Shown here piece by piece: positions 17,626 to 43,556 of a stretch of DNA of 64,000 nucleotides. This DNA is from Candidatus Poribacteria bacterium (GTDB taxonomy: Bacteria; Poribacteria; WGA-4E; JAJDTR01). The stretch is taken from the NCBI GenBank assembly GCA_965208765.1, contig OZ242354.1, positions 2,921,281-2,985,280 on the forward strand. The letters run 5' to 3'. Under the pieces are notes generated by a model. The model did no database searches. It was not told the DNA's origin and was given only the letters and a program-made list of their open reading frames with translations. Each line of letters begins with the position of its first letter. Position 1 is the stretch's first letter. The position numbers and the translations under genes are program-made.

Positions 17626-18062
17626 ATCAAACGCGTTGCGAATAAAATAGCTCGCAATCGCGAATATACCGCCGATGGTGACGAAGAAGAGTGAGGTGTA
17701 CGTGAGGAAGATTTTGTGATGGAGTTTGATAGTCTAGAGGTCCTTTTTTGCCGGTTTGAAACTCTAAGCGCGACTTGAAAAACGCGGTTCAGTATCCTTA
17801 GAAAATTTCATACATTTCATAATTTTCATAACAAACGCGGTTTTTCGGTAGAGGCGGAGAAAGGGCGATAACTCTTACTATCACTGGATTCCGCGCCGTT
17901 TTGCGGTTCACGTCAAGTTTTCACAGTTATGAAATTTTGGTATTAAGTGCCGACGGAATTTTGGACCACACACACGCAACGGTGAGACAAGAGTTGTCAT
18001 TTGAATCCTTGCCAGGACACCGCATAGAGATCCGATGAAAAAACAAACCAGTGGGTGCTGCG

Positions 18063-18332
18063 TTATTCTTGCGAGGGCGGGTCCGGAGGTTTCTGCCGGT
18101 CAACGAGCACGATGACTGCCAAAAGGAGTACCAGCAAGATCACGATGATACCGGTGTATACGACCTTGCACCACATCTCGAGCGCCAAGTTGCCGAGGAA
18201 ACCGGCAACCGCCCCAACTCCGATTGTGATGAGGAGGAAGCGCCCTCTAAAATGCTTTGCGGATTTAACGATCAGTATCAGAGACACAATCAGTAGTAGA
18301 AAAATAAGCGTGAGGAGAATTGTGTCAATCAT
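18063..18332 (-). CDS. Small hypothetical membrane protein with two TM segments
   Basis: 89 aa, highly hydrophobic (LLTLIFLLLIVSLILIV; IVILLVLLLAVIVLV). Confidence 0.35.
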   Translation of the reverse strand: MIDTILLTLIFLLLIVSLILIVKSAKHFRGRFLLITIGVGAVAGFLGNLALEMWCKVVYTGIIVILLVLLLAVIVLVDRQKPPDPPSQE

Positions 18333-18470
18333 GGTTTAAGGCTTTCGTCGGGAAACAAACGCGTATATCGAAACATACCGGATGCGGCACAGCAGCGTAG
18401 ATAATAGATCTAAGGAATTATAGCGTGGCGCGGTGTTTTGCGCAATTGAAATTGGATGCGCAAAAAATTC

Positions 18471-18499
18471 TTGACATGCGTAATGTTAGGTAGTATAAT
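18471..18499 (+). promoter_or_regulatory. Perfect consensus sigma70 promoter: TTGACA, 17-nt spacer, TATAAT
   Basis: TTGACA at 18471-18476, a 17-nt spacer tgcgtaatgttaggtag, and TATAAT at 18494-18499. An AAAGGGGA RBS sits before the ATG at 18577. Confidence 0.6.
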
Positions 18500-18576
18500 T
18501 CAGATTATAGGATATAAGATTCGGTTGGTTGGTTTATACAACTCACTCTACAAACACAAAAAGGGGATTTCTGAAA

Positions 18577-19593
18577 ATGGCAAAAAGCGCCGACGGACGG
18601 AACAGGAAAAAGACCATCGAACTCAGAAACGATCAACTCATCTTCCGATTTCCGGAGGTGCACGAGGAAGCGGAAGTTGCGATTGAATTCCAGCGGACGC
18701 TGCGGATTCCGGACGATAACCGCGAACATTATCTGCCGCCGGGGCTCGGCGAATTTCCGCTCTATCGCGTGGACGACTATCCGGATAACCTGCCGGAAAC
18801 GTGGAGCCAACATGGCGGGGTATTCTTGCCGATGTATCAAGCAGAAGCACTGTGGATTAACTTCCGCGCCGAATATCCGATGGCGGTGAAGATAGCGGCG
18901 GGCAAGATTAACGCGGTGACCGGGGAGGCATGGAGCGAAGGGCTTACTCGAGAACCTCAGGACTACATGGTGGTACCCGGTCAGCCGTGGCTGGACGGGT
19001 TCTGCGTGGAGAAGGGGTTGATTCGGCAGTTCGTGGCGATGCCGCTGGGCGAGGGCTACACGGCGGAGGAGCAGTTGACGGGAGAGGCGGAGCATGGCGG
19101 GATTCAGATTGCCGTCTACCCGATGAAGGTGTCGGTATACGAGGAGAGTTTCGGTTGGGTTGAAAATAGGCTATGTGCGCCGACACAGAAATTGCATAAA
19201 CTGCACGATTCTGAGATGGGTTTAGCACCCGGCGGTCTTATGCGTCAAGAGATATACGAGGACGAACACGGAATCGATGCGTGGGACACGTCGACTTATT
19301 CGCGGTGTTTCGTGCATATTGTAAACAGTGTTCAACTGTTTCACTTGACGGGATGCCGGCCGCCGGGGAAACCTCAGACCGCGCAAGATTACACCGCCGC
19401 TGGTCTCCCTTGGTTTGATTACTACTGGGGCGATTTGAAGGCTTTGGAAGGCGCGAAAGAGTTGGCTGGACTGGACAGTGTTGCCGCTGTTAAACTGAAA
19501 AAAGGGGAGGGTTTCCTCTCGGACAACGATCCGGTGACGCCGGTTGTCGTGAAGAAATTGAACCGGTCAGTGGTGCGCGAGGGTGTTTTCTAG
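18577..19593 (+). CDS. Hypothetical protein encoded in a GC-rich, probably foreign island
   Basis: 339 aa from MAKSADGR, with no family recognised. GC here is visibly higher than in the flanks, and the gene sits directly upstream of a tyrosine recombinase. Confidence 0.55.
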   Translation: MAKSADGRNRKKTIELRNDQLIFRFPEVHEEAEVAIEFQRTLRIPDDNREHYLPPGLGEFPLYRVDDYPDNLPETWSQHGGVFLPMYQAEALWINFRAEYPMAVKIAAGKINAVTGEAWSEGLTREPQDYMVVPGQPWLDGFCVEKGLIRQFVAMPLGEGYTAEEQLTGEAEHGGIQIAVYPMKVSVYEESFGWVENRLCAPTQKLHKLHDSEMGLAPGGLMRQEIYEDEHGIDAWDTSTYSRCFVHIVNSVQLFHLTGCRPPGKPQTAQDYTAAGLPWFDYYWGDLKALEGAKELAGLDSVAAVKLKKGEGFLSDNDPVTPVVVKKLNRSVVREGVF

Positions 19594-19637
19594 TCAATTG
19601 AAAGCGGTGGAATGCTGCCGCGAGTGCAGGGTCTGTC

Positions 19638-20537
19638 ATGAAACAGGGAAAGGAATCGGAGACAGGTTTACGAATCGCTTTGGGTTCGGTTGAGGAGATT
19701 CGCGCGAACGTGTCGGACAACACGCTCAAGGCGTATAAGCACGCGACGCGCAAGCTGGAATCGTGGCTTGAGGGTCGCGCGCTATCCGATGCGGTGCTGG
19801 CGGAGTATGTGCGTTTTTTGCATGAGCAGGGGAAATCGCCAGCGACGATCAATCTAGTGCTGTCTGCGGTGAAGTGGATGGCGGAATACCACGGGATGGA
19901 TGCCGTGGCTGGTGCGGCGACCGAGGGCGCGTTGTCCGATGTTCGTCAGTCAGGAAAGCGGCGCGAACGGCGTCAGGTGGACGGACTGACGTGGGACGAT
20001 GTGGAGCGAGTTTGCGCCGCAGCGGAATCGGCTGACACGGTGGCGGGGTTGCGCGATGCCGCCATGATTAGCCTCATGAGCGATTGTCTGTTGCGCATCT
20101 CGGAGGTCGTCGCGGTGGATGTGCAGGATGTCAATTCCGAAGGGCTGCGACTCCGCCGACGCGGAAACGATCGAGAGGCTCTGTATATCTGCGAATCGAC
20201 GCGGCGGTTAATCGAACGCTATCGAAGGAGAACGGGCGTTGATTCGGGAGCTCTGTTCCGGCGGGTTCGATTCCAGAACCATGTGACAGAGGAACGTCTC
20301 GGCGTGAAGGGGGCGCGTGAAGCAATACAGCGGTGGGCAGCAGAAGCCGGTATCGAAGGATTCATCAGTGGACACTCTCTCCGTGTCGGGTCTGCGGTAT
20401 CGTTGGCACGGGCGGGGGCGTCGGTCGTCGATATGCAGACGGCGGGCAGATGGAAGTCGGCGGACATGCCGGCGCATTATGCCAAAGCGGAACTGGCGGA
20501 GCGGGGCGCGATCGCCCGGTTCAAAGACGGGAAGTAG
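19638..20537 (+). CDS. Tyrosine recombinase / phage-type integrase
   Basis: N-terminal SAM-like core-binding domain and a catalytic domain carrying the R...HSLRVGSAVSLARAG...AHYAK (catalytic Tyr) pattern. Confidence 0.8.
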   Translation: MKQGKESETGLRIALGSVEEIRANVSDNTLKAYKHATRKLESWLEGRALSDAVLAEYVRFLHEQGKSPATINLVLSAVKWMAEYHGMDAVAGAATEGALSDVRQSGKRRERRQVDGLTWDDVERVCAAAESADTVAGLRDAAMISLMSDCLLRISEVVAVDVQDVNSEGLRLRRRGNDREALYICESTRRLIERYRRRTGVDSGALFRRVRFQNHVTEERLGVKGAREAIQRWAAEAGIEGFISGHSLRVGSAVSLARAGASVVDMQTAGRWKSADMPAHYAKAELAERGAIARFKDGK

Positions 20538-20628
20538 ACAATGAAGTCGAGGTTGCCGGTTGCAAAGATGGGGATGTCCGAGTCAACCTGTTTTTCTCTT
20601 TTCCCCATGCCAAGAGGAGTCCTATCGA

Positions 20629-21009
20629 ATGAGCCGATTACGCAGAAAAGTACTCAATAGATTTTTTAACATTGAAGGAACAGCCCAAGACATGTTAAAT
20701 CATTTCGAATGGGTTGTCCAGTCGTGTCCCGAATGCCAAACCGATGAAGACAAATACGCACTAACTGTTAGCATATTCTTGGAAAAATGGTATGTCGGCA
20801 CGGCGGACACGTATACTGCCAAAAACATGATAATGTCAGCCGCCAAAGAAACGGCTGAAGCGACTAACAAACCATTCAACCTCCAATTAGTCGCCGCCGC
20901 CGCCATTGGAACTTATATCGGTTCTCGGCAGAAAAAACCGCCGCAATCCGCTTTATACCATGTGAGTCTGTTCAACGCCGTGTGTGAAGTAATCCCGGAA
21001 TCTTTGTAA
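20629..21009 (+). CDS. Hypothetical protein
   Basis: Start taken at MSRLRRKV. Low-GC ORF immediately after the integrase. No motif recognised. Confidence 0.35.
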   Translation: MSRLRRKVLNRFFNIEGTAQDMLNHFEWVVQSCPECQTDEDKYALTVSIFLEKWYVGTADTYTAKNMIMSAAKETAEATNKPFNLQLVAAAAIGTYIGSRQKKPPQSALYHVSLFNAVCEVIPESL

Positions 21010-21060
21010 AGAGGTTCAAAGATGGGAAGTGAAAGCGGTATTCCAAAAAAGGAGAAATGA

Positions 21061-21357
21061 CATGAAGCGAGAATTGATCTATGCGGCGGCGGTTGTGTTG
21101 GGGCGCTGATGACTATGGCGTTGGGGTTCGTCGTGTCACGCGGAACACAAAGCGAATCACCTGCCGACTGGGAAGACGGCTATTTTAATGTGATTAACTG
21201 CCGGCGAGTGCGGTTGGTCGTTGACCTGAAAGAGGATGAATACTACGAGACGACGCTAAGTCCATTAAACCTCGTGTTTGGTCGGCGAAAGGGCGAAAAA
21301 GGCGTGATGGCGGGCAATGTGGTGGGCAGTTATGGCATGACGGTAACGGCGAAATAG
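21061..21357 (+). pseudogene. Small secreted hypothetical protein, apparently frameshifted at a GGGG run
   Basis: MKRELIYAAAVVLGR then a stop. The hydrophobic signal-like segment continues in the +1 frame as MTMALGFVVSR. Adding one G to the GGGG at about 21097 would fuse the two. Confidence 0.35.
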
Positions 21358-22178
21358 TAAATGTGTGCAGCGATTATATTCGTGTGGGTAGAGAGGAAAA
21401 AACGGACATGCGAGAGGCACAGTTTGGAATCAACGAACATGGAGGGTTCGTCGGCGTTTTTGGCATTGGCGACACACAATCTCGTGCGCTTATGGGCGTG
21501 AACGAGTATGGGGACGGCGCAATAAGCACTTGGTGGAAGAACGGCGAACGCCGGGCAAATCTGAAGTGAATCTAAGGAAGGGAAGTAGAGGAGGAAACAG
21601 ATGATTCATAGGGCTTTGCTTAAAGTGTTCGGATGCAGTGGCGCGGGCGCATTGTCGGGGGGAATAATGATCTATTTATTCGTCTGGAGCGAGTGGGTTG
21701 AATGGGGCGTAGAATCGGCACAGCCGTTTCGATTAGATTGGCACGAGAAAGAGATGGTGTTTTTATTTGCGGTTGTCGGGACGTTAGTTGGAATGATAGG
21801 CGGTATCGGTTGGGCAATCGAACATAACGAAGCGAGATGGCATTCATTGGTTGTTCACGATCCCACTAACCGGAATGGGCGTGGGGATAGTAACGGCATT
21901 GGAAAGTGCGGGCGTGTTTGCGCGGCTCAAGGATAGGAAGTAAAGACGGAATCAATCGGCGGGCAATGCGGAATTGGAACGCAATTCGGGAGGCGCTGGC
22001 GGGTACAAAGGATTTTGACACGGTGCTTGGCAGGTTTTCATTTGACGACGCGGGGGATGCCGTGTACAATCCCGTCATGTTGATTGTGCGGAACGGGGAG
22101 TTTGAGGTGTTTGAGTAGGTGTGTGCAGTTTTGATGAGATTCGATATCAATCATTCAAAACATGGAGGATGACGTTAA

Positions 22179-22610
22179 ATGGTGTTGACATTTTTGAACA
22201 AGCATAGGCATATTGGTCTTTTGGTTCTCCGCATCGGGATCGGGTTGATGTTTATCGTTCACGGAGCGCCGAAACTATTTGACGGACCAGAGAAGTGGGA
22301 GAAACTTGGCATGGCAATGGCGACGCTCGGCATCGGGTTCGCGCCGGCGTTTTGGGGATTCATGGCGGCGGTTTCGGAGTTTTTCGGCGGCATCTGTCTC
22401 ATCCTCGGATTCGTTTTTCGGCCGGCTTGTATCCTTTTGACGATAACCATGCTGGTTGCCTCTATCAGCCATCTGAGCCGCGGGGACGGTTTGGGCGGTG
22501 CCTCTCATGCCATCGAACTCGGAATCGTGTTCTTGAGTTTGATCTTGATTGGTGCGGGGAAATATAGCCTTGACGAGAAGTTGCAGCCGCATCAAGAGGA
22601 GAGCAGCTAA
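22179..22610 (+). CDS. DoxX-family membrane protein
   Basis: The DoxX signature GLLVLRIGIGLMFIVHG and four TM segments. Confidence 0.75.
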   Translation: MVLTFLNKHRHIGLLVLRIGIGLMFIVHGAPKLFDGPEKWEKLGMAMATLGIGFAPAFWGFMAAVSEFFGGICLILGFVFRPACILLTITMLVASISHLSRGDGLGGASHAIELGIVFLSLILIGAGKYSLDEKLQPHQEESS

Positions 22611-22630
22611 GCTGAATGGCGGGGCAAGAA

Positions 22631-22750
22631 GATCTCTACCGCACTCACTATCCGTTCGCTTGATTCCCGCCTACGGTGCCGGTGGGAACGCGATGTGAGT
22701 TCTATCGCCTTAAGATTTCTATCGCGCTCATTATCCATTCGCTTGATCCC
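22631..22750 (-). repeat. MITE-like dispersed repeat, two adjacent units in reverse orientation
   Basis: GATCTCTACCGCACTCACTATCCGTTCGCTTGATTCCC followed by ...GAGTTCTATCGCCTTAAGATTTCTATCGCGCTCATTATCCATTCGCTTGATCCC. Confidence 0.55.
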
Positions 22751-43118: not shown

Positions 43119-43213
43119 CGTAGGGTGGAATCAAGCGAATGGATAATGAGCGATCAACTGAGTGGATAACGAAGACGATAGTAGATCCTGATAGGACTCC
43201 CCTGCCCACCAGC
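43119..43213 (+). repeat. REP hairpin with a full MITE insert, copy 1 in the hisS-aspS spacer
   Basis: GTAGGGTGG, then AATCAAGCGAATGGATAATGAGCGATCAACTGAGTGGATAACGAAGACGATAGTAGATCCTGATAGGACTCCCC, then TGCCCACCAGCC followed by TTTTTT. Confidence 0.65.
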
Positions 43214-43455
43214 CTTTTTTCCGCGCAACATTCCCTGTAGGAGCGAGTTTCACTCGCGACAGAAAATCTCGTGACTTGGAGTTGATCCTAAAAGGCTTGT
43301 GGGGGTAATCTTTCGAATCAAGATAGAACCAATGAGTCAGCCTTTTGTAAGCCACGGAGTGGCGGAAGGTGTATAGAAATGCCGAAACCCGAGCCGTTCA
43401 AGCCCCAGCGGGGCGACAGGTGACAACCTGCATAACCCAAGGGCTTTAGCATTCG

Positions 43456-43556
43456 TAGGGTGGAATCAAGCGAATGGATAATGAGCGATCAACTGAGTGG
43501 ATAACGAAGATGATAGTAGATCCTGATAGGATTTCCCTACCCACCAGCCTTTTTCC
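43456..43556 (+). repeat. REP hairpin with a full MITE insert, copy 2 (about 95% identical direct repeat of copy 1)
   Basis: Same 100-bp sequence with a few substitutions (GAAGATGATAG, GGATTTCCCTACCCACC). Confidence 0.65.

Follow-up and report, generated by a model that had tools for sequence, protein, structure and literature searches.

Organisation of the locus

The window analysed in this work, meaning the whole 64,000-nucleotide (nt) stretch of contig OZ242354.1 (positions 2,921,281 to 2,985,280 of the forward strand) of a Candidatus Poribacteria bacterium, carries at positions 18471-20537 a consensus sigma70-type promoter followed by two genes on the same strand, here named A339 and Int. 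The former encodes a protein of 338 amino acids (aa) that belongs to a very large uncharacterised family, and the latter a tyrosine recombinase related to Cre. An earlier note, made from the sequence letters, had described this pair as a GC-rich (rich in guanine plus cytosine) foreign island. The comparative analysis presented here indicates that promoter, A339 and Int probably represent an old conserved module with accessory DNA located downstream of it, rather than a recent island. The features of the core region, in window coordinates, are the following:

18462-18470, plus strand: A-rich tract resembling an UP element, abutting the -35 hexamer
18471-18499, plus strand: consensus sigma70-type promoter (-35 TTGACA at 18471-18476, 17-nt spacer, -10 TATAAT at 18494-18499)
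18494-18509, plus strand: palindrome TATAAT-TCAG-ATTATA, read from the sequence, overlapping the -10 and the expected transcription start
18500-18576, plus strand: leader (5' untranslated region) of approximately 70-77 nt, from the -10 to the A339 start codon
18577-19593, plus strand: A339, 338 aa plus stop, starting approximately 77 nt after the -10
19638-20537, plus strand: Int, 299-aa tyrosine recombinase, following A339 after a gap of 44 nt
20482-21967, plus strand: lineage-specific replacement segment, comprising a new C-terminal tail of Int and cassette-like genes

A promoter-A339-Int unit conserved among Poribacteria

Relatives of A339 were scanned in one genome per species, which identified 79 loci, and further loci (all designated here by L numbers) were retrieved through homologues of Int. 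The closest relatives in the species-level scan are all from Candidatus Poribacteria metagenome-assembled genomes (MAGs). Eight of these loci (L001-L007 and L020) share a gene order consisting of a histidine kinase gene, a gene for an 89-aa membrane protein, A339, Int, variable DNA, a binding-protein gene, DoxX and ThiI, and four loci retrieved via Int homologues (L084 and L093-L095) are likewise syntenic with the window. A second conserved position, found in L082 and L083, has the order Hydantoinase, PQQ, PcRGLX, A339, Int, Cupin. In total, the A339-Int pair occurs at 19 Poribacteria loci and at least three chromosomal positions, with up to three copies in a single genome (L007, L008 and L009).

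In the paralogous copies, homology to the window is confined to approximately 18460 to 20420, encompassing the promoter, A339 and Int, and the pairwise identities of A339 and Int are correlated (r = 0.74 over 153 pairs). Therefore, promoter, A339 and Int behave as one unit, and the suggestion that the two genes travel together holds within Poribacteria; outside this phylum the partner of A339 is a regulator with a helix-turn-helix (HTH) domain, as described below. Between the window and its syntenic orthologues, the number of synonymous substitutions per site (dS) amounts to 0.18-0.9 and the ratio of nonsynonymous to synonymous rates (dN/dS) to 0.13-0.24 (0.16-0.24 for A339 and 0.13-0.23 for Int), demonstrating that purifying selection acts on both genes and that their synonymous divergence is deep. 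Protein identities to the orthologues are 0.80-0.88 for A339 and 0.72-0.93 for Int, comparable to the 0.83-0.88 of the flanking kinase, which together with the shared synteny and the dS values argues that the pair has been resident since before these species diverged. A test of vertical inheritance, comparing A339 and Int distances with those of the histidine kinase, was not informative, as the range of identities is too narrow.

When the window is compared with its close relative L084, A339 has a dS of 0.43 (84% aa identity) and Int a dS of 0.18 (93% aa identity); the window A339 is closest to that of L001, while the window Int is closest to that of L084. This discordant divergence suggests recombination inside the module. 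Apparent terminal inverted repeats around the pair in L008 and L009 were resolved into arrays of repeats resembling repetitive extragenic palindromes (REP-like repeats) and a 3.8-kb segmental duplication.

The promoter had been reported in the earlier note as a perfect TTGACA-17 nt-TATAAT, and it does match the consensus at 12 of 12 hexamer positions, with a spacer inside the 16-18 nt typical of sigma70-type promoters. It is the single exact match across the window, in which promoter matches with at most one mismatch number three, against 0.18 expected from dinucleotide-preserving shuffles. Among the 16 Poribacteria loci aligned, non-syntenic copies included, the -10 TATAAT, the 17-nt spacing and an A-run before the -35 are present in all, and the -35 reads TTGACA in eight and differs by one or two changes elsewhere (4-6 of 6 positions matched). 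The homology of non-syntenic copies to the window begins at approximately 18460-18462, i.e. at the A-rich tract. Since the promoter is conserved in orthologues as well as in paralogues that, at 70-78% DNA identity to the window, differ in about one of four nucleotides, it is probably functional. The palindrome at 18494-18509, which is partly kept in orthologues as TATAATTC..TTATAGG, is a possible operator. The leader is conserved among the syntenic orthologues, and a check for structured RNA retrieved no Rfam family for it or for the neighbouring intergenic DNA.

Int is a Cre-like tyrosine recombinase with conserved catalytic residues

The assignment of the second gene to the tyrosine recombinases, made previously from the sequence, was confirmed by a match of 19638-20537 to Pfam PF00589 (expectation value (E) 3.4e-17) and by an N-terminal SAM-like core-binding domain (PF02899, E 1.1e-5, 26 bits versus a cutoff of 22.3), so that both the catalytic and the core-binding domain of this enzyme class are present. 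The closest solved structure by sequence is Cre (E 8e-12), with which R153, K224, H246, R249, W272 and Y281 align, the H-x-x-R, W and Y positions included. Residues R153, K224, R249, W272 and Y281 are invariant in 14 orthologues, and H246 is found in 13 of the 14 (being Q in one). Considering that the catalytic residues are kept and that dN/dS is 0.13-0.23, some recombinase function appears to be selected. Int scores 13.3 bits against the integron-integrase model TIGR02249, whose cutoff is 265, and is therefore not an IntI. No relatives of Int were found in JGI metagenomes, and a literature search by accession or on Poribacteria tyrosine recombinases retrieved no paper.

Three proteins have short, conserved, charged C-termini of a similar character: A339 ends in …VREGxF, the HTH proteins of other phyla end in …RDGDW, and Int ends in …[YF]KDGK. 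The Int tail is kept even in proteins with a replacement of the 15 residues before it, which may reflect either a peptide function or a DNA site.

Accessory DNA begins at, or shortly before, the end of the recombinase gene

The region downstream of Int contains the following features:

20517-20537, plus strand: direct repeat copy 1, formed by the final 21 nt of Int (codons RFKDGK-stop)
20629-21009, plus strand: cassette gene 1, 126 aa, intact orphan
21012-21032, plus strand: direct repeat copy 2, AGGTTCAAAGATGGGAAGTGA (RFKDGK-stop), identical to copy 1 at 17 of 18 nt, an Int 3'-end remnant between two cassettes
21062-21569, plus strand: cassette gene 2, split over frames 2, 1 and 3 (tblastn)
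21601-21943, plus strand: cassette gene 3, frameshifted near 21840
21923-21943, plus strand: direct repeat copy 3, CGGCTCAAGGATAGGAAGTAA (RLKDRK-stop), weaker, directly abutting the binding-protein remnant
21945-22118, plus strand: 3' remnant (last ~57 codons) of a Peripla_BP_5/6 gene that is intact in L093 and L004

Homology between the window and L093 stops at 20481, which is 56 nt before the Int stop codon, and homology to the other syntenic loci stops at 20395-20535; it resumes at 21968-22034, in the last codons of the periplasmic binding-protein gene. Among the other syntenic loci, the break falls no more than a few nt from the Int stop. A fuller arrangement, consisting of Int, a DUF6884 gene, an intact binding-protein gene and DoxX, is found in L093 and L004 (Int-DUF6884 spacers of ~143 bp and 275 bp, respectively), while in the window and its close relatives L084, L094 and L095 the ancestral Int tail, the DUF6884 gene and most of the binding-protein gene have given way to the segment 20482-21967. 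The accessory segment is thus not the two-gene pair that had been proposed as the acquired unit, and it overlaps only the tail of Int before extending downstream. The lower-GC small open reading frames (ORFs) noted there previously are indeed present (49.3% GC over 20538-21972).

None of the three cassette genes of this segment matches a known family. The product of cassette gene 1, for which Pfam, NCBIfam, PADLOC and PHROG were searched without a match, is 97% identical to a 130-aa product of L084. Cassette gene 2 is intact in L084 (174 aa), and a repeat protein related to it occurs in L020 and L012; cassette gene 3 is intact in L094, where it encodes a 144-aa membrane protein. The split state of cassette genes 2 and 3 in the window reflects either pseudogenes or frameshifts in a long-read MAG assembly. 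In L001 the remnant of the binding-protein gene is truncated nearby, approximately 23 nt further upstream than that of the window. No shared motif was found at the borders of the DUF6884 and binding-protein units, and one apparent fixed border of these units turned out to be a REP insertion specific to L093.

Across the first locus type, the DNA between Int and the next conserved gene ranges from ~0.14 kb to at least 4 kb, with inserts following Int of 1.1 kb in L006, 2.9 kb in L007, 2.6 kb in L003 (carrying a DUF2971-like gene) and more than 4 kb in L002. At the second locus type, the distance from Int to the Cupin gene is 0.25 kb in L083 versus 5.15 kb in L082. No recombinase is carried by any of the inserts whose genes were examined. 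At two locus types, corresponding to two chromosomal positions, a variable recombinase-less array is therefore present at a fixed site beside a recombinase gene, and the accessory DNA sets in at the end of Int or shortly before it.

In two lineages, the inserted segments contain copies of the Int 3' end, internally or at their far end. All three Int-tail copies of the window are conserved in L084, L094 and L095, and L003 differs from L001 by a 2.6-kb insertion bounded by a 65-nt duplication of the Int 3' end (92% identical). A scan in which the last 70 nt of Int were compared with 5-6 kb of downstream sequence in 17 loci, alongside 34 control scans (upstream, and the reverse complement of downstream), returned matches for the window clade and L003 only, with no comparable match in the controls. 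A motif of the GAAATCGGATT type, GAAAT[CT]G[AG]?GGA[AT]T, has eight occurrences in the 589 kb of Poribacteria sequence scanned (both strands counted), each of them on the plus strand and at -22 to +48 nt relative to the Int stop, and one in 1.5 Mb of other loci; the enrichment is indicative only, the motif having been defined after the sequences were viewed. In L083 this motif lies within the palindrome AATCGG-N7-CCGATT, of which L011 has a one-mismatch version, and the insertion breakpoints of L006 and L007 coincide with the edge of the motif.

The A339 family and its regulator outside Poribacteria

The first gene had been described as encoding a 339-aa protein of no recognisable family; its product is 338 aa long, and the absence of a named family holds. 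No significant match to A339 was found in Pfam, NCBIfam, PADLOC or the PDB (by sequence and profile), and PHROG returned two marginal matches only (E about 0.03). The family is nevertheless very large. A word-indexed search identified at least 8,000 clusters at 90% identity, all named only "hypothetical protein"; it scored 8,000 candidates, of which 7,998 were hits with the single sequence and 8,000 with a profile, so that these counts are lower bounds. The exact A339 sequence of the window had no entry in a contig index. An exhaustive HMMER search over 1.84 billion cluster representatives (50% identity) found 3,782 clusters with E <= 0.001, including 930 with E <= 1e-30. Relatives in Chloroflexota, Acidobacteriota, Gemmatimonadota, Pseudomonadota, Planctomycetota and other groups share 54-72% identity with the window A339, which has the invariant motifs of a family alignment containing 65 invariant columns. 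Sequenced plasmids and phages seldom carry members of the family, and these are always annotated as hypothetical.

Structure prediction, which the earlier note had proposed as a check, yielded a confident model from a more divergent alignment with AlphaFold2 (AF2), with a predicted local distance difference test score (pLDDT) of 90 and a predicted template modelling score (pTM) of 0.88; the predicted fold is largely a beta-sandwich with a disordered loop at residues 196-210. A previous AF2 model, built on a shallow alignment, had a low quality (pLDDT 59) that made the fold search performed with it meaningless. With the good model, Foldseek retrieved no significant neighbour in the PDB (best E 0.12, template modelling (TM) score below 0.2), while a library of viral structures gave matches to uncharacterised giant-virus proteins, for example of Harvfovirus (E 4e-25, TM 0.67), and to a ubiquitin-like-domain protein of Hyperionvirus (E 1e-10). 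Across the PDB and this viral library, giant-virus proteins are the sole significant structural relatives of A339. In some relatives the A339 domain is fused to TPR, Sel1, VWA or DUF932 (P0320, P0334 and P0333 being fusions with Sel1 or TPR repeats or with DUF932), and P0371 combines it with ubiquitin and a RING finger as well as with a UBA-like stretch and an inserted ubiquitin-like segment, a eukaryote-like composition.

In 60 of the 79 loci, all 60 outside Poribacteria, a gene of ~116 aa is located directly upstream of A339 on the same strand. It encodes an XRE-type HTH protein (PF13560, E 9e-12) whose best PADLOC match is CapH (E 4.5e-8), and RefSeq annotations agree. Immediately before the start codon of the HTH gene lies a conserved palindrome, for example GTGTAGTATATACTACAC or GTGTACTATGTAGTACAC, that contains the -10, with TTGACA 16-18 nt upstream of that -10. 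This layout points to a near-leaderless, autorepressed operon that would move between phyla with its own control region. The arrangement was seen in the approximately 40 nt upstream of the HTH start codons of loci outside Poribacteria (L014-L079). The genes next to HTH-A339 frequently resemble those of defence islands (PDDEXK_4, AAA, WYL, AAA_15/21 and type I restriction remnants) and are sometimes housekeeping genes.

The window contains the A339 homologue of this module and lacks its upstream HTH gene; no HTH gene was found in the window or in any Poribacteria locus. The Poribacteria promoter keeps GTAGTATA at a distance from the -35 similar (offset ~1 nt) to that of the left half of the HTH-operon palindrome, and it may therefore represent the family promoter after loss of the repressor gene. 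With no HTH gene and with TATAAT as the -10 in Poribacteria, A339 and Int are probably transcribed strongly without the usual repressor of the family. The proposal that A339 could be a recombination directionality factor finds no basis in the habit of the family, since its partner outside Poribacteria is the HTH regulator and not a recombinase.

Base composition

The local GC content of 60-65% against surroundings of 40-52%, as estimated in the earlier note, proved to be overstated: A339 has 55.7%, Int 60.6% and the pair 56.7%, versus a window mean of 51.4% (standard deviation 3.3%, 1-kb windows) and 50-56% for native neighbour genes. Int, in the top 0.6% of 900-bp windows, is the sole part that reaches the upper tail. 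GC at third codon positions (GC3) is 65% for A339 and 67% for Int versus 63.5% for the histidine kinase and 68% for ThiI (native neighbours 58-68%), and because these values are equal, there is no codon-level anomaly in either gene. Direct repeats resembling attachment (att) sites were searched for around 18400-22150 and none was found, nor was a tRNA gene, as a target for integration, present anywhere in the window. An empty site, i.e. a kinase-DoxX interval lacking the pair, was not seen among the related loci, which were all retrieved through A339 or Int and so are unable to sample empty sites. The combination typical of an integrative island (empty site, flanking att repeats or tRNA gene, deviant composition) was therefore not observed.

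The plus strand of 18000-22500, containing A339, Int and the cassettes, has a sustained positive GC skew of 0.12-0.39 per 500 nt, far above the rest of the window.

Proposed mechanism and alternative explanations

The reading that we favour, and hold to be probable, is that the region is a long-resident, lineage-specific module composed of a promoter with its A-rich tract, A339 and the Cre-like Int, downstream of which the accessory DNA is located. In this model, the fixed core consists of the consensus sigma70-type promoter with the A-rich tract, A339 and Int; Int would act on a site that coincides with, or closely follows, its own 3' end, where it may insert, swap or delete gene cassettes that are devoid of a recombinase; and the captured cassettes would sit downstream of the strong promoter, so that transcription may reach the captured genes. 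That Int itself drives the capture at its own 3' end is a more tentative proposition, to which we give somewhat less than an even chance. As for A339, Poribacteria may have hard-wired an accessory effector module to a recombinase. Our best guess, held with low confidence, is that A339 is a regulated accessory effector of the defence or addiction type, considering the autorepressed two-gene architecture, the horizontal spread and the defence-like neighbourhoods of its family.

Several observations weigh against this model. The third repeat copy is weak, and an intact 144-aa ORF of L094 has this copy as its 3' end, so that part of the similarity has perhaps been kept as coding sequence. Int-tail direct repeats occur in only two of ~7 independent lineages, and the enrichment of the Int-stop motif is, as indicated above, partly circular. 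A common attC-like structure at cassette borders was not seen by repeat searches and inspection (no dedicated attC model was used); the former recovered only the Int-tail direct repeats and no shared palindrome. Some inserts contain large genes on the opposite strand, such as those for the TPR proteins of 745-775 aa in L002 and L007, unlike promoterless integron cassettes. Poribacteria genomes are fluid elsewhere, and some of the variability next to Int may thus be background. The multiple paralogous copies of Int within a genome could yield Int-tail fragments by ordinary homologous recombination. Finally, the argument for use of the promoter is one from sequence conservation, and the role of A339 is a best guess.

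The main rival builds on such points: the pair would be a domesticated relic of an ancient element, and Int would have no part in the downstream variability, which, like the Int-tail fragments, would stem from the general plasticity of the genome combined with homologous recombination or gene conversion between paralogous copies. It accounts for the three pair copies of one genome (L007, L008 and L009) and the 3.8-kb segmental duplication, for the resemblance of the window Int tail to that of the L013 paralogue, for the discordant divergence of A339 and Int (dS 0.43 vs 0.18 between the window and L084), for other insertion/deletion hot spots nearby and for the lack of Int-tail repeats in most loci. 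The maintenance of the catalytic residues and of a low dN/dS in Int over deep divergence is, however, at odds with a relic, as are the breakpoints that fall at the Int stop, or shortly before it, at two unrelated positions of the chromosome and the exclusively Int-proximal position of the motif, and we regard this explanation as unlikely, if still a serious contender. Far less probable is the recently acquired integrative element, or cargo-plus-recombinase island between native genes driven by a strong promoter, that had originally been envisaged. The GC content of Int, the adjacency of a recombinase and an orphan gene to low-GC ORFs and the patchy distribution of the A339 family across phyla, which implies horizontal transfer at some time, would be in keeping with it, but it is largely refuted by synteny, the pair occupying the same position in at least 10 other Poribacteria loci with a dS of 0.18-0.9, purifying selection and native-like GC3, and by the absence of direct repeats and a tRNA gene; moreover, the homology of paralogues runs from the promoter to the Int 3' end without terminal repeats.

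Two further explanations concern the role of A339. A phase-variable or regulated defence or toxin module, in which Int would flip the promoter or another segment to switch A339, would agree with the fact that recombinases beside strong promoters are typical of such switches and with the PDDEXK_4, AAA, WYL, AAA_15/21 and type I restriction remnants found around HTH-A339 modules elsewhere. It is very improbable, since the conserved inverted repeats required to flank an invertible promoter were not found among the relatives, the lone 13-nt pair (17688/18537) being absent from all orthologues including L084, and since PADLOC has no model matching A339. Alternatively, A339 could be a eukaryote-like host-interaction factor of sponge symbionts that is expressed at a constitutively high level, its linkage to the recombinase being incidental. 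The closest relatives of the window A339 come from sponge-symbiont MAGs of several phyla, family members carry ubiquitin, UBA and RING (P0371), TPR or Sel1, and one of the giant-virus relatives is annotated as ubiquitin-like-domain-containing; yet a signal peptide or secretion signal is not evident on reading the A339 sequence, the family is common in free-living Alcanivorax, Thiocapsa, Dechloromonas, Streptomyces and Bradyrhizobium, and the usual partner is a bacterial autorepressor, which makes this role improbable, though less so than an invertible switch.

Relation to known systems

The suggestion of an integron-like module was in part borne out, the downstream array being compatible with it. 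As in integrons, a fixed tyrosine recombinase is located beside a site at which recombinase-less genes accumulate, new DNA is found nearest to the recombinase, a strong resident promoter is directed into the array and the cassette genes are mostly orphans. Unlike in integrons, the recombinase is not an IntI and attC-like folded repeats were not seen, the array is co-directional with and 3' of the recombinase gene rather than divergent from it, the putative site and the stop codon of the recombinase gene overlap, an additional conserved gene (A339) lies between promoter and Int, and some large inserts are on the opposite strand. The Poribacteria unit would thus be functionally integron-like and anatomically different, and, with a recombinase that is not an IntI, it does not qualify as an integron.

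Cre/loxP of phage P1 provides the closest solved structure, the same H-x-x-R...W...Y signature and a similar two-domain size; the similarity is low, however, a lox-like site of 13-8-13 architecture was not identified, and the context here is chromosomal and multicopy instead of a phage or plasmid. In integrative mobile elements exploiting Xer recombination (IMEX), in pdif modules and in the accretion of cis-mobilizable elements with integrative and conjugative elements (CIME/ICE), recombinase-less elements are integrated in tandem at a resident site. By analogy, the inserts described here are without a recombinase of their own, direct repeats of the putative target flank the L003 insert and border the segments of the window clade, and the arrangement of the window is a tandem one. 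The difference is that the target would be the 3' end of the recombinase gene instead of dif or an ICE att site, and that the repeats occur in a minority of loci.

The HTH-A339 pairs outside Poribacteria resemble XRE/CapH-like autorepressor modules, in that A339 follows an HTH gene, a palindromic operator overlaps the promoter and the neighbours are often defence-like. They differ from these in that a CapP-type protease is absent from the inspected loci and A339 matches no known toxin or defence effector; in addition, the window is devoid of the HTH gene. In PADLOC v2, no system matches A339 or Int, and only the HTH proteins of other phyla match capH.

Repeats and intergenic sequences elsewhere in the window

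A second insertion/deletion hot spot is located between DoxX and ThiI, where L084 (5751-8433) and L093 (11050-14028) have an insert of 2.7-3 kb with an FRG-domain gene. The corresponding site of the window, 22611-22750, holds only two REP-like repeats. This repeat, of ~30-39 nt and with the core CTATCGCnnTCAyTATCCrTTCrsTTGATC, has 13 copies on both strands of the window and none in 20 shuffles:

22629-22667 and 22712-22750: REP-like repeats at the DoxX-ThiI site
1001, 15953, 26724, 26940, 38332, 43129-43493, 45933, 55829 and 57847: REP-like repeats elsewhere

Other Poribacteria loci also have it, as copies or short tandem arrays; in L008 and L009 it is located, among other places, between A339 and Int. 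Between the histidine kinase gene and the 89-aa gene lies an AT-rich intergenic stretch of 437 bp (17626-18062) with imperfect inverted repeats at 17802-17825 and 17915-17938, for which there is no annotation and no Rfam match.

Implications

A lesson for sequence scans is that the combination of a perfect promoter, an integrase and a slightly raised GC content does not imply recent acquisition. Two points of interest emerge, namely a large unnamed family with a distinctive operon, and its coupling in Poribacteria to a Cre-like recombinase beside a cassette-like hot spot. It is conceivable, although doubtful, that these amount to a new and very widespread two-gene accessory system (the HTH-A339 pair) and, separately, to an undescribed gene-capture platform of Poribacteria, in which a Cre-like recombinase with a site overlapping or directly after its own stop codon, a derepressed promoter and A339 would be combined, and which would take up and exchange recombinase-less cassettes at several chromosomal positions. 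If capture at the Int 3' end is true, it would constitute a second, independently evolved solution to integron-style gene capture, found in an uncultivated symbiont phylum, and it could help to explain the shuffling of orphan genes in sponge symbionts. A339 itself is among the larger protein families without a name, a domain model or a solved relative, and, with its unusually conserved sequence, its self-contained autoregulated operon in most phyla and the structurally related proteins of giant viruses, it is well suited as a target for finding new functions.

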